DNA of 64,000 nt from Rhizobium sp. Q54 (GCA_945861615.1 CAMAVH010000002.1:2955-66954); one strand, 5' to 3'. Shown: positions 45,001 through 51,000, counted from the first letter of the stretch. Program-made: the numbers.

Positions 45001-48000
45001 CGTGGGTAGAGGTGTTCCAACTCGTGCAACGTCGATGAGAAGAAATCGGTATCGAGTCGCAGCAGCGCGATCTGATCGGGCGCCGCGCCGGGGATGGTAT
45101 CCTCGACCATGCCCTCAACGTAATGAACCTTGTGGGGGGGGATAACCGGTGCGCTTGATAAAGCGGCGGGTGTCGTCGAGCGTCGAAACGACCCAGCCGG
45201 AGTTGCCGTCGGGTCGAAGTTTTTGCGCCCATTCTTCGTGGGCCGATCGGCCGTCGGCGTAGACATCCCGTTCGCCCGGCACAGGCATGCCGGCAAAGGT
45301 GTCGAACAGGTGAAACTCCCGGTCGGATTGGCCGCGCTGCATCAAAGCATGCATCATGATGGCGACGCCGCCGCCTTTATAGACGCCGCATTCAACGAAT
45401 GCGCCGGGAATATTGTAGCGCGCGACATGATCCGTAAGGCGCACAAGCCCGGCAACACCCTCAGGGGAAACAATCGCGATATTTTCCGTGATGCAATAAA
45501 GCATTTTCTCTTCTGTCGTCAGATCGGAACGATCGACGCCGGGCACAGACATTTTGAAATTCTTGGCGACGGCTAAAGCATCCGCCCGCTTATCCGCATC
45601 GGATAAGGCACGGATCAGACGTATGTGAAGATATTGGTCGTCCGGTATTAGAATGACAGCCTTACGCCAGCAGACGAAGGCATGCGCGAGATCGCCGACA
45701 TTGAGGAATTGCTCGCCGACGTTCCACAGCACCTTCGGATGATGCGGCATCAGCAAGGCGACGGCTTCATCGAGCTTGTTGGCGACGATCAGCTTTTTGG
45801 TTTTTTCCTCAAGTTCTCTGATTTGCACCGCTAAGGTGTCTTGCTCGCTCATACTCGCACTCGCTAGCCTTGAATGATGGTGGATTCCACGGACCGGAAC
45901 CGCACAGCAGTGGATCCATGAGATGACTGCGGTCTGGGGCTTAAATATTCTTAACAGCGTCGTCCGGAAACTCTTTTTCTAGCGCGTCTGCCCGCGGACT
46001 CGTACGCCGGATGATGATGTCGCCCTGATCGGTGATTTCCGGCAGGGCGTATTGCGGCAAAGCCCCGACGAACCGGTCGAAGGCGCGCAACACGCTGTCC
46101 ATGCCCTGGCGAGCGAGTTGGCCCGGTCTGCGCGTGTCGCCCTGATCGGCGGCCAAAGTTTCGGCGAAGGCCGGCATAACGGTTGCGGTCAGAGTCAAGA
46201 AAACAACGGCAGACAGGAAACGGCGGACGGTCATGGTCAGGGCCTCCTGAAAGGAATGAACCGGCGAATTATACCTCGGCGCGCGGGCCTTTGCGGACCG
46301 AATTTGACTCCGCAGCGTCGGCGGCCCGGCCGCGGCCTAAAGATCTTTCAACGTGACCCCCGCCAGGGCCTGCTCGATAGCGCTCTCCGCCCACTGGGCG
46401 GCTGCCAACACGCCGGGTCGACCCTCCAGCGTGGCGCTAAGGCGCATGCGGCCAGTGCCGGCACCGCGCCACGCCGTCAGTACGGTGATATACGCCAGCT
46501 CATTCGGGCTTGATCATCATTCTGCCTCATAGCACCATGTTGCCATATCAAATTTTGAGAGACGATAGTGGCAGCAAAACACTCGCCCGCAAAGCATCCG
46601 TCTGATGAAGCCCCTCGGCCAGAGAGTCCTTATCGCAAGCCAGGACGCCCTTCTTTCAAGCCGACACAGCAACAGATTGGTTGGGTAAAAGGGGTGGCAA
46701 TGTTCGAGCCACCACTTGATTTTATTGCGCGGACAATTCCGGGGGGACCGATCTCGATAAAAACTCTCATGAAGAATTTTGGAGACACTATCAAATTTGC
46801 CAAGATCAACGCCATCAGCCAGGTGACCATGTCTCTCGTTCGAGCGGCACTTACGCCTGGGCCAGGCCAAGTCAGAGCACAAATTTTTTATCTTAAAAGT
46901 GTTGGTTGGCCCAATGACAATAGTGAGGCCCGCGTTGAGAAAAGCACGAGCAATAGTCAAAGCTCCCAGGCAAAGATCAATACAAAACGCCCCAGCGCGC
47001 GCCTAGCCGCTCGAGTTCGGCGTGTCAAATTCGCAGGAAGCGAAGACCGGCCGCGACTTTCATCGGCAGACGAAATCGAAAAATTAAGTAAATTACTCGC
47101 AAAGTCTTGACACACGCGACGATGAGCGAGCGGCCGTAAAAGCGCATCACAGCAATGCCGACCTCTAGCGCCGTCAGCTAACTTATCCCCGCAATCCACC
47201 GACCCCAGCACCACAACAACAAACAGTGTGTAAGTACCTACTGTTGTAGTTGGTGGGAAATAACGCGTTTTACGGGGATAACTTTTGATCAGAAATTTCC
47301 GCAATCAGGCGTTAACTGGCCAAACCCTAAATTCATTCTCACATCAACTTCCACTTGCACATTTTGTCTCGTCAGTTTCGCCCCCAAGCCGTAGGCATAC
47401 GCACTTGCATAATTAAGCCGTTCGCCTTTCGGACCCGTTGACCAGCGCAATGTTTTACGCGTGTGTGTGCTCATTCTCATTGTGATTCGTGGAGGATGGC
47501 GCAGTGGACGATGGAGCGAAATTTTTGGCATGGCGGATGCGCTTTCAAGCCGAGGCGCGTGATTTGCTCGCCTACATCAATCAAGCCTTGCTGCAGAGCT
47601 TGGCCGTCAGCGATGCAGGCTGCAAATGAACGGGCTTTCAACCGAACAGACCAAAGCGCTTGAAGCCAAATTGCAAGCCAAGCATATCCGCGAGCGGGAA
47701 ATGCGTGGCATGAGCTTTTCTTATCTCGAAGGCTGGCATGTGATTGCTGAAGCCAACCGCATTTTCGGCTTTGACGGCTGGGACCGCGAAACGCTAGAGA
47801 GCGCCTGTGTTTGGCATGCGGCCAGCCGTGACCCTGCGTGCAGCTATACAGCCCGGGTGCGCATCCGCGTGCGCGCCGGAGACAAGCTGGTGATCCGCGA
47901 TGGCTCTGGCTTCGGCTCAGGGACCGGCATCACTCTCGGCGAGGCCCATGAAAAGGCACTCAAAGAAGCCGAGACCGACGCCACAAAACGTGCCTTCATG

Positions 48001-51000
48001 ACCTTCGGCAATCCTTTCGGCTTAGCGCTCTACGACAAGGATATGACCCAAGTCACAGGGCGCAAGGCTCAGAAGCACAAATGGCCCTTGGTCTCTGGCG
48101 CCGGCCTGCAGATCAAGGACTATGGCAATCCGCATCTTTTCTATGGAGGCGCCAAGAAACTCCTGCAACAAGCTCAGACCGTCGATGAAGTGCGCCGCCT
48201 ATGGGAGGCCAATGAGCTAACCTTCCGCCGCTTGCGGGAAGCTTTTCCAGACATGCGCGATGAAAACGGCATCCACTTCACCATTCTGTTTTGCCGCGCC
48301 TGCCGCACCCGGCTGCAAGAAATCGCTGCTGTCCCCACCCAGAGCCAGGACAGCAAACCAAACGTGCCGCCGCCAAGCCAGCCCCGCAACACTGGCAACG
48401 CCGAGGCAATCGAAACAAGCGAGGATGCAGCTGATGTCGATACGGTTGCTGTCTCTGGTATTTCGAACGAGGCCGACGCGCACTCAAGTCTCGGCTATGA
48501 GCAATTATATGTCGCTCCGCAAAAGCCACCGCCCTCACAAGGGGCGCAAGCAGAGCCCACCAGCGCCAAAACTGCTCCCAGACCCATCAGCCAGCCGACT
48601 GGCCTCGTCGACCCCTTAACGGCAACTTTGGCGGCGCTGAAGGCTCCAATGATCCCGAGCAGCCAGGGCAGCCAGGGCAGCCAGGGCAGCCAGAGCAGCC
48701 AGGGCAGCCAGGGCAGCCAAAGCGTCGATCTGCCTTTCGGCAAGATCCAGCGCCACCGCGATCGCCAGCACCTGAAACGTGTGGCGGCGCAGCCCTGCCT
48801 CGTCTGCGGGCGCAACCCGGCGCACGCCCATCACCTCACCTTCGCCCAGCCACGGGCCCGTAGCCTGAAGGTCAGCGATGAATGGACTGTCCCGCTGTGC
48901 GCCTTGCATCACCGTGAATTGCATGATCACGGCAACGAACTCGCTTGGTGGCAGACCAAGGCGATCGAGCCGATAGGCATCGCTCAAGCGCTGTGGGCCG
49001 CTCGCCGCGATGTTGGCGGTGCGGCAAGTCTGGAGGGCCAGCACGATGCACGGTGATCCTCTCCTCAACGGCGCCCATAATATCGAGATCAAGCAATGAG
49101 CAAGATCAAGCCATTGCCCGAGGAGGTCCGCACCCTCGCCAAATCGCTGATCGAGCAGATCTATGAGCGCGTCATGCTGTTGGAAGCGATGTCGGCCGAG
49201 TCCTGCCCGGAACAGGACATGGGCAAACGGCTCGACGATCTCTTCAGCGCCGCCACCATGCTTTCCCAAGCCCCGGCCGGCTCGATTGGCGATGTCGCGC
49301 TCAAGCTGGATGTCTTATGCCGGCGCATGCGCGAGTCGACATCGCCGGAACATTCAGGCGAGGTGCTGACCTACATGCTGGCGGAATCAATCCGCAGCGA
49401 TTGTTGCGTGTTGTCCCAATGGCTGCGTTAAAGCTTTGGTGGGACAATTCAGCGCCGCTGATAGTGGCAGGCGTTGCTTGTCAAGCCGCCAAAACGGCCG
49501 CGGTGCGCATGCGCATCTGCTCAACCGCGCTTGCGCGAAGGCTTGGTCGGCTCGCTCTGCCATTCGGTTTCAACACGTTTGGCGACAATGATATTGGGGT
49601 AGCGCCGGCCGTCTTTGGTGACCAGCTCTTCAGCTTTCTTCAGCTTGGCAAGCTTGCTTTGATAAGTCGCTTCATGCATGCCTCTGGGCCGACCGGCTTT
49701 AAGATGGCCCAAGTCGAGCACAGTTTGTGTTGCACGAACCCGGGCATCGACGCGCTGACTGGCGTTGACGAGATCATGGCAAGTCCGACAAGCCCAAGAG
49801 TCATGCCAGTAAAAGAGTTTGAGAACGCGGTGGTTGCCTTTTGGACAGGTAAACCATTTGCGAGCCCTGCCGACACGCGAGTAGGTCTCTTCGATCTCGA
49901 AGTCGATGATCTCCGGATCATCATCCATAAGTGGACCGTAAATTTTAATGACGGCACGCAGGGTTTCAGGGTCTGGCACCTTGAAAACGCCAACACCAAT
50001 GGTGCGAGCGCCGCCGTTGACGATATCGAATTCGACCCATTCACAACTGAATTCCGGCTGATCCAACCGTCGCCCCACATCTTTAAAATCGATCGAGGGG
50101 CAACTTTCGCTGTGGCGGCGCGGCGGCTGCGGAATGAGACGGCGACGAGGCATGAAAATCCACTCGAGGTTAGATCGTAACCATTATTACGGTGGATATT
50201 CTAGATTATCGAGTAAATTACCTTTTCTTGGGCTTACCGATACAAAGGGGTCTTTTAATTTCAAGGAGTTATATAGCTATTTTATTCTGGGGAATTTTTT
50301 CTAATATATGAATAATTATTCTAGATTTACGTAAATTAGCCAACACGAGAAGGTTGTCGCCTGCAGACAACCTAGGTTTCCGTGCTGTCAGATTCGGAGG
50401 GGGTTTTCGCTGGCATGTTCGGGTCTGGATTCTTGCGCCGGATAATAATGTCGCCCTGCTCGGTGATCTCCGGCAGCCCGTAGCGCGGCAATTCAGCGGC
50501 GAATTTCTCCAAGCTGCGCAGCAGCTCATCGACCCGCTCGCGGGCGATCTCACCCGGCCGGCGAGGCGTATCGGCGCCGGGCGCCTCGGCGAAAGCCGGC
50601 GCGGCCATCGCCGTCAGAACGAGCAGGGCAGCGGCAAGCAGGAAACGGCGGACGGTCATGGCCAGGGCCTCCTGAAAGGTTTTCGGGCGGATTATAACGC
50701 GGCGCGCGGGCCTTTGCGGGCGGAATTGGCATCGACCGCGGCGCCGTCGACCGCCGTCTCGACGGCTTGGCCACGGCCTTCGGCGAGGTCTTTGAGCGTC
50801 ACCCCGGCCAAGGCCGCCTCGATGGCGTCCTCCACGGATTTGGCGGCCGCGAGCACACCGGGCTGGCCCGCCAGCGTGGCGCTGAGCCGCATGCGGCCGG
50901 GCCCCGCGCCGCGCGCCGCCGTCAGCACCGAGATCGCCTGGGTCGCTTCCGGCGGCCGGGCGGGCACATAGCCCGGGCGCTTGCCCTCCAGACAGCGGAT

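Follow-up and report, generated by a model that had tools for sequence, protein, structure and literature searches.

The Rad52-DUF968 fusion gene and its product

The stretch of DNA analysed here, referred to as the window, comprises 64,000 nucleotides of Rhizobium sp. Q54 (GCA_945861615.1 CAMAVH010000002.1:2955-66954) and carries a complete gene for a protein that joins a Rad52-type annealing core to an HNH domain of the DUF968 type. An earlier note, made from the sequence alone, had predicted this fusion, and the open reading frame (ORF) was recovered on the plus strand at exactly the positions given there (Table 1). The encoded protein is 476 aa long and 100% identical to a database entry (P0001). 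All motifs quoted in the note were found, with YLEGWHVIAEANRIFGFDGW at aa 33-52, KALKEAETDATKRAFMTFGNPFG at aa 110-132, and CLVCG...HAHHL...PLCALHHRELH at aa 391-433. Both domain assignments were confirmed by Pfam matches exceeding the gathering thresholds, the profile test that the note itself had proposed for refuting them.

Four parts of the protein were resolved with an alignment of 98 homologues, which underlies all conservation figures given here, and an AlphaFold2 model: the Rad52 core, a middle domain, a linker, and the DUF968 domain. The ratio of non-synonymous to synonymous substitutions (dN/dS) was measured for each part against an 86% identical relative at locus L085. According to these values, the three folded domains are under purifying selection, whereas the linker is drifting.

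Table 1. Features of the fusion gene and its surroundings, with positions counted from the first nucleotide of the window (pLDDT, predicted local distance difference test; TRF, Tandem Repeats Finder)
Feature	Position	Strand	Evidence
Complete gene for the Rad52-middle domain-linker-DUF968 fusion	47626..49056	+	ORF list; Pfam PF04098 and PF06147
Rad52/Rad22 core annealing single-stranded DNA, aa 8-153	47647..48084	+	Pfam, PDB profile comparison, Foldseek, dN/dS 0.076
Conserved middle domain, aa 150-238, beta-hairpin and three helices	48073..48339	+	pLDDT 93-98, conserved residues, dN/dS 0.16
Disordered Pro/Ser/Gln-rich linker, aa 239-372	48340..48741	+	pLDDT mostly <50, dN/dS 0.97
In-frame 9-bp tandem repeat GCAGCCAGG, 6.8 copies, encoding (SQG)n	48659..48719	+	TRF and repeat finder
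DUF968-type His-Me (HNH) zinc-finger nuclease domain, aa 373-465	48742..49020	+	Pfam, PHROG, topology, invariant residues, Gp16 alignment, dN/dS 0.033
180-aa gene, lineage-specific, at the usual Sipho_Gp157 position	46568..47110	+	Conserved in L001/L085/L086
Nearly invariant non-coding stretch directly 5' of the start codon	47417..47625	+	Three-way alignment of window/L085/L254
Gene for a 111-aa helical protein, 40 bp downstream of the fusion gene	49096..49431	+	Conserved beside the fusion gene in L001, L085, L086, L254
Gene for a 210-aa Cys-rich protein, convergent neighbour	49521..50153	-	Conserved only in the window's lineage

A Rad52-type fold and the groove residues for single-stranded DNA (ssDNA) are present in the N-terminal core. 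The Pfam family Rad52_Rad22 (PF04098) matched aa 8-153 over profile positions 5-152 of 153 (E=2.1e-34, 119.1 bits versus a cutoff of 20.3), and TIGR00607 scored 70 bits, under its equivalog-style cutoff of 224.8. When the family profile was compared with the PDB, yeast Rad52 (8g3g) was matched with E=1.7e-24 and human RAD52 with E about 1e-18. In the profile alignment, the ssDNA-binding residues R55, Y65, K152, and R153 of the human inner groove corresponded to R24, Y33, K121, and R122 of the fusion protein, of which K121 and R122 were invariant and R24 and Y33 were kept in at least 90% of the homologues. The pLDDT of the model was mostly above 80 over aa 20-125, and Foldseek aligned it to human RAD52 chains with E=1.4e-10 and a target-normalised template modelling score of up to 0.84. 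The earlier note had assigned about 200 aa to Rad52. While this identity holds, the core spans about 145-150 aa only, and aa 150-238 form a separate domain that the note had missed.

This middle domain is conserved throughout the family but lies outside the Rad52 profile, with W153, P169, W193, N196, G215, and H217 as conserved residues. Neither PDB fold searches nor the sequence search returned a significant relative, and the domain was not present in the viral Rad52 proteins or in the examined fusions of DUF968 to ERF, another annealing protein. Three proteins of 589-1832 aa (P0123, P0127, and P0128) were matched by the middle-domain query in 6-8 separate stretches each, which may reflect a helical motif that is repeated in other proteins or matches of low complexity. 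The linker that follows varies freely in length and sequence between homologues. The tandem repeat and the low pLDDT agree with the Pro/Ser/Gln-rich linker with an (SQG)n repeat that had been described as joining the two domains. The (SQG)n expansion was not present in P0002 and P0003.

The C-terminal domain was assigned to DUF968 (PF06147) over aa 373-436 with E=1.1e-10 and 42.3 bits versus a cutoff of 27.8, and to the PHROG "HNH endonuclease" families phrog_96 (E=2.7e-11) and phrog_131. Seven residues were invariant in all 98 sequences: C391, C394, H403, C425, H428, H429, and H433. They form the motif CxxC...H...CxxHH...H, which combines a zinc-binding CxxC...CxxH (C391, C394, C425, and H428) with the catalytic or metal histidines H403, H429, and H433. 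In the AlphaFold2 model a beta-beta-alpha topology was observed at aa 400-403, 421-424, and 426-435 with pLDDT >90. For this small domain, neither fold nor sequence comparison with the PDB gave a significant match; the only suggestive ones, to the HNH domains of McrA and IscB, headed the Foldseek list. DUF968 has been grouped with DUF1364 (YbcO, PDB 3g27) in group 7 of the His-Me finger superfamily (Jablonska et al.); the family profile gave no sequence-level match to 3g27. Besides DUF968, the only HNH family of Pfam matched by the fusion protein at E<=1 was HNHc_6 (PF16784), which remained under its threshold (11.9 bits versus a cutoff of 26.6, E=0.17). The fusion protein is related to HNHc_6 but is not a member. 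The window protein did not match the P1 Ref family (RecA_dep_nuc, PF16786) at E<=1.

The closest link to an experimentally studied protein was provided by Gp16 of phage PhiNM1, which matches mainly HNHc_6 (E=5e-117) but also DUF968 in profile searches. Aligned with the family profile by hhalign (E=3.3e-5), Gp16 showed its motif in register with that of the fusion: C145, C148, H157, C181, H184, H185, and H189 of Gp16 correspond to C391, C394, H403, C425, H428, H429, and H433 of the fusion protein. Gp16, with a NinB/Orf-like domain at its N-terminus, binds double-stranded DNA (dsDNA) as well as RecA; it nicks plasmid DNA in vitro and depends on its zinc-finger residues (PMC12817073). The earlier suggestion that the fusion couples nicking with strand annealing is plausible, because this related DUF968/HNHc_6 protein is an experimental nickase whose tested residues match the invariant residues one-to-one.

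Distribution in cellular genomes

The earlier note had called the architecture unusual, which the census of databases contradicts. Both PF04098 and PF06147 were carried by all of the 120 matches inspected, the best of 6,755 in the database, and relatives were encoded in at least 577 species-representative genomes in a scan of one genome per species. Nearly all carriers were Alphaproteobacteria, including Rhodospirillales, Stellaceae, Hyphomicrobiales, and Methyloceanibacter. Fusions of DUF968 to ERF and Rad52 had furthermore been mentioned by Curtis et al. 2014 and Jablonska et al. 2017 (PMC4118853, PMC5714182), and fusions to RusA and to Orf/NinB are noted in the same literature. The Rad52-DUF968 architecture is widespread and already catalogued, and the window gene is an ordinary member of a large family of thousands of proteins that is biochemically uncharacterised.

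Among the 80 best genome loci, 58 contained both domains in one ORF. In approximately 11 further loci of the 80 the Rad52 and DUF968 parts lay in overlapping ORFs of different frames (L054-L070 and other loci in metagenome-assembled genomes from long reads), and these could be pseudogenes or frameshift errors of long-read sequencing. Some genomes contained two or three copies that were only 62-84% identical.

Distribution in phage, viral, and plasmid collections

None of the 50,697 phage records and none of the 72,556 plasmids covered >=80% of the fusion query, and all of the 82 best viral loci, which comprise two phage records and the 80 highest-ranking IMG/VR contigs, lacked the fused form. 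In these viral loci, Rad52 was a stand-alone gene encoding about 210-330 aa, with a Sipho_Gp157 gene upstream in 34 of 82 and a separate DUF968 gene 0.2-2.2 kb downstream in 14 of 82. In EBPR podovirus 2, Rad52 (gp56) and DUF968 (gp53) are separate genes of one operon, and gp53 also matches the P1 Ref family PF16786 (E=3.9e-6). New in this analysis is that the fused form was not found in the mobile-element collections searched, while Rad52 and DUF968 adjoin there as separate genes. That Rad52 and DUF968 are separate neighbours in phages but fused in cells speaks for a functional connection of the two.

A search with the C-terminal domain identified ERF-DUF968 proteins of 374-459 aa in IMG/VR contigs (L169-L183). 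Their N-terminus belongs to ERF (PF04404), and their DUF968 domain is 52-63% identical to that of the fusion protein. As both ERF and Rad52 carry DUF968, two unrelated families of annealing proteins are fused to the same nuclease. In both ERF-DUF968 loci checked by Pfam (L173 and L176), a YqaJ exonuclease gene was located directly upstream, an observation that is likewise new. This weakens the premise that HNH takes the place of a separate exonuclease, and since the ERF version keeps a classical exonuclease, HNH is unlikely to be a mere exonuclease replacement; the arrangement favours a nickase working at sites of annealing.

Gene neighbourhoods of the fusion

In cells, the fused form is found in small two- or three-gene cassettes of alphaproteobacterial chromosomes. 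Of 87 cellular loci, 78 had a Sipho_Gp157 gene (PF05565) directly upstream, and in many cases it shared 4 nt with the start of the next gene. The window copy belongs to a small lineage without Gp157 (window, L001, L085/L086, L254, and P0003). A six-frame search of the whole window with hidden Markov models (HMMs) gave no match to Gp157, by which a degraded Gp157 gene in the window was also rejected, and the family was likewise not found in the relatives L001, L085, and L086. The missing upstream partner of this lineage is another observation that is new here; the window copy is nevertheless an intact gene that evolves under purifying selection. The Rad52-DUF968 genes examined had no neighbour resembling YqaJ, RecE, or lambda Exo.

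Genes for a ParB-methylase, DUF5681, and a large terminase (Terminase_6C) were close by in about 10-13 of the 87 loci, and these terminase-bearing loci contained no portal, capsid, or tail genes. A recurrent mini-element was observed, in which a ParB-N6/N4 DNA methylase, DUF5681, and Terminase_6C are followed either by Gp157 and Rad52-DUF968 or by YqaJ and ERF-DUF968 (L082 5313-11353; L083 5782-11645; L251 9498-14381; L171, L173, and L176). Portal, capsid, tail, and integrase genes were mostly not found within 10 kb of it, and an unannotated 200-aa protein, "c6", often lies on its 3' side (29 loci).

Many cassettes stood on their own among ordinary genes, repeatedly in or beside polysaccharide-synthesis clusters. 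Recurrent positions of Gp157/Rad52-DUF968 cassettes in or next to surface-polysaccharide clusters were seen in the window (40600-46000), L250 (1-20000), L082 (2468-15200), and the contig of P0003. The cluster genes near the cassettes encode epimerases, glycosyltransferases, Wzy, DegT aminotransferases, TylF methyltransferases, and acyltransferase 3.

Proposed mechanism and alternative explanations

We consider it probable that the fusion protein is a phage-derived, single-polypeptide nick-and-anneal recombination enzyme, in which HNH acts as a nickase at annealing sites and not as a substitute for an exonuclease. By homology to human and yeast Rad52, we infer that the core would form an oligomeric ring, bind ssDNA in its basic groove, and anneal complementary strands. 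The disordered tether of roughly 130 residues would carry the predicted zinc-finger beta-beta-alpha-metal HNH nuclease of the DUF968/HNHc_6 type, with potentially one nickase per ring subunit. This nuclease may cut duplex or branched DNA where annealing takes place or close by. Its nicks could give rise to, or process, intermediates of recombination, among them nicks, gaps, D-loops, and flaps, either starting or resolving them. P1 Ref, acting on RecA filaments and D-loops, and the NinB-HNH protein Gp16 would be the analogues of such a coupling.

Several points weigh against this proposal. No biochemical or experimental work on any Rad52-DUF968 protein was found in the literature. The H157A mutant of Gp16, corresponding to H403, stayed toxic (PMC12817073), which makes the roles of single histidines in catalysis uncertain. 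The Rad52 version has no exonuclease neighbour and may therefore have an end- or ssDNA-generating role. Finally, the window copy is without the Gp157 partner that most of the loci have, and it may work differently or only partially.

The third of these points leads to the explanation that HNH replaces the exonuclease, generating ssDNA for the Rad52 ring by nicking with degradation or unwinding, so that one polypeptide would do the work of a pair of the lambda Red or RecET type. HNH is indeed the only recognisable nuclease in the window cassette, and exonuclease genes were missing beside all Rad52-DUF968 genes examined. In the sister ERF-DUF968 fusions, however, YqaJ is retained directly upstream, so that HNH is not redundant with an exonuclease there, and the characterised relatives Gp16 and Ref are nickases or endonucleases and not processive exonucleases. 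We regard this explanation as unlikely. The C-terminal module could instead be a zinc finger that only binds DNA or a partner such as RecA or the single-strand binding protein SSB. The dsDNA and RecA binding of Gp16, its catalytic-site mutant that retained the phenotype, and structural matches to solved HNH nucleases below significance are compatible with this. Such a role without cleavage appears improbable nonetheless, as the histidines outside the zinc site (H403, H429, and H433) are invariant in the homologues, DUF968 has the lowest dN/dS in the protein, and Gp16 nicks DNA in vitro.

The terminase trio adjoining about 10-13 of the 87 cassettes, and also ERF-DUF968 genes, would fit a packaging nuclease of the HK97 gp74 type that assists the large terminase in DNA cutting, to which the fusion with Rad52 would be incidental. 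Most loci, including the window, nevertheless have no terminase within 8-10 kb. DUF968 moreover belongs to a His-Me group of nin-region recombination modules and is fused to several recombination proteins, and DUF968/HNHc_6 alone were matched among Pfam HNH families at E<=1. A packaging role is accordingly rated very unlikely. Least credit is given to a prophage remnant in decay that no longer serves a function in the window genome, which we consider highly improbable. The missing Gp157, the lack of phage genes around the fusion gene, and the expanding microsatellite in the linker could be read as decay, but the ORF is intact with every invariant residue retained, the folded domains all evolve under strong purifying selection, and at least 3 related genomes have kept the same cassette.

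A more far-reaching version of the nick-and-anneal proposal is a self-contained, RecA-independent, homology-guided nickase, in which ssDNA held by the ring would serve as the guide and the tethered HNH would cut the annealed DNA. Alphaproteobacteria would have domesticated this cassette of phage origin, which often lies within or next to surface-polysaccharide clusters, and it would promote allele exchange at variable polysaccharide loci. The restriction of the fused form to cellular chromosomes, the purifying selection, the diverged paralogues within genomes, and the apparent allelic replacement at the window's own locus are compatible with this version, which we present as a speculation with little chance of being correct.

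If the tethered HNH does nick at annealing sites, this would explain how exonuclease-less phage recombinases of the Rad52 type obtain or process their substrates, and it would give a function to DUF968. The fusion could also allow recombineering with a single compact gene in Alphaproteobacteria, in which tools of this kind perform poorly.

Comparison with known systems

The N-terminal 145 aa resemble human and yeast Rad52 as well as the Sak-type Rad52 of phages in profile, fold, and ssDNA-groove residues, and the upstream Sipho_Gp157 neighbour is common to phage Rad52 genes and the cellular fusion cassettes. The middle domain, the long disordered tether, and the C-terminal HNH nuclease are additions relative to the Rad52 family. 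Eukaryotic Rad52 has a C-terminal half binding replication protein A (RPA) and Rad51, which is not found in the fusion protein, and none of the viral Rad52 proteins examined was a fusion.

The design of Gp16 of PhiNM1 and Orf20 of phiETA is the same, with a recombination-mediator domain followed by the CxxC...H...CxxHH...H zinc-finger HNH. Gp16 is encoded in a recombination module with an annealing protein and SSB, but it differs in its N-terminal partner, has no long linker, and acts with the host RecA. ERF-DUF968 proteins share the order of annealing protein, variable linker, and HNH, and have DUF5681, TerL, methylase, and "c6" genes as neighbours. They differ in the annealing protein, in having YqaJ instead of Gp157 upstream, and in having no middle domain.

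In P1 Ref, a RecA-dependent HNH endonuclease, a strand-pairing protein directs the nuclease to recombination intermediates, as is proposed for the fusion. A disordered N-terminal region is described for Ref as well (PMC4330346). RecA filaments recruit Ref as an independent protein, whereas the nuclease of the fusion is covalently tethered to a predicted RecA-independent annealing protein. YdfU (DUF968) and YbcO (DUF1364) of cryptic prophages of E. coli belong to the same Pfam family or group, and their genes lie among prophage recombination functions of the nin region, close to RusA. Rad52_Rad22 and ERF are listed as co-occurring domains (Jablonska et al.). In contrast to the fusion, YdfU and YbcO are small stand-alone proteins of lambdoid prophages in Enterobacteria.

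Lambda Exo-Beta, RecE-RecT, and YqaJ-ERF likewise represent phage-derived, RecA-independent recombination by a ring-forming annealing protein and a nuclease, features that are predicted for the fusion. These two-component recombinases use a separate processive 5'-3' exonuclease, whereas the fusion carries a predicted HNH endonuclease or nickase in cis and its cassette has no exonuclease gene.

The locus in Rhizobium sp. Q54

The called neighbours of the fusion gene are polysaccharide-synthesis and housekeeping-type genes. HMM searches of 37-60 kb of the window gave no match to TerL, DUF5681, or methylases, so prophage hallmarks were not detected in this region, and there was no tRNA in the window. 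The 180-aa protein encoded upstream matched phrog_12540 weakly; in view of its lack of a Pfam match, its identification as DUF5681 or as a small terminase was rejected. The 111-aa protein had no Pfam family above its cutoff, and its homologues adjoin cassettes in two other lineages (L082 and L023), making it a recurrent accessory of the cassette. No Pfam, PHROG, or PADLOC family was found for the 210-aa protein. None of these three neighbours matched a nuclease in Pfam, PHROG, or PADLOC, so that no exonuclease gene was found in the cassette. PADLOC gave no defence-system match for the fusion protein or its neighbours except for one weak match of the 111-aa protein at chance level, and a defence system was rejected on this ground.

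The non-coding stretch 5' of the start codon was 97-99% identical among the window, L085, and L254, compared with about 90% for the coding region. It probably represents a promoter or leader, or else a tract of recent recombination. A non-coding RNA in or around the cassette was rejected, with no Rfam match at E<=0.1 and with folding of the upstream stretch like that of shuffled sequences (z=0.11). Two ORFs in this area were rejected as genes. One of 46 aa (47489-47629), overlapping the start codon by ATGA, showed almost exclusively non-synonymous substitutions among the three relatives, and one of 80 aa on the minus strand (47289-47531) was frameshifted in L254.

The flanks of the window and L254 were 96-100% identical, while the fusion gene and its upstream region (about 47150-49100) were only 72-93% identical. 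Between these two genomes, which are nearly identical otherwise, the fusion gene seems to have been exchanged for a diverged allele. An acyltransferase-3 gene of the polysaccharide cluster (43572-44750) was absent in L254, which is otherwise 95-98% identical, amounting to an indel of roughly 1.2 kb.

A direct repeat of roughly 500 bp with 70-79% identity (45996-46490 and 50427-50935) flanks the cassette of 4.4 kb. The left repeat consists of a diverged second copy of a gene for a 97-aa secreted protein and of the 3' end of a BrkB/YihY-Rrf2 fusion gene (50692-52140, minus strand). Since L085 has methionine-salvage genes at the left instead and no left repeat, the comparison suggests that the polysaccharide cluster at the left arrived by recombination, with the repeat segment as a homology arm.

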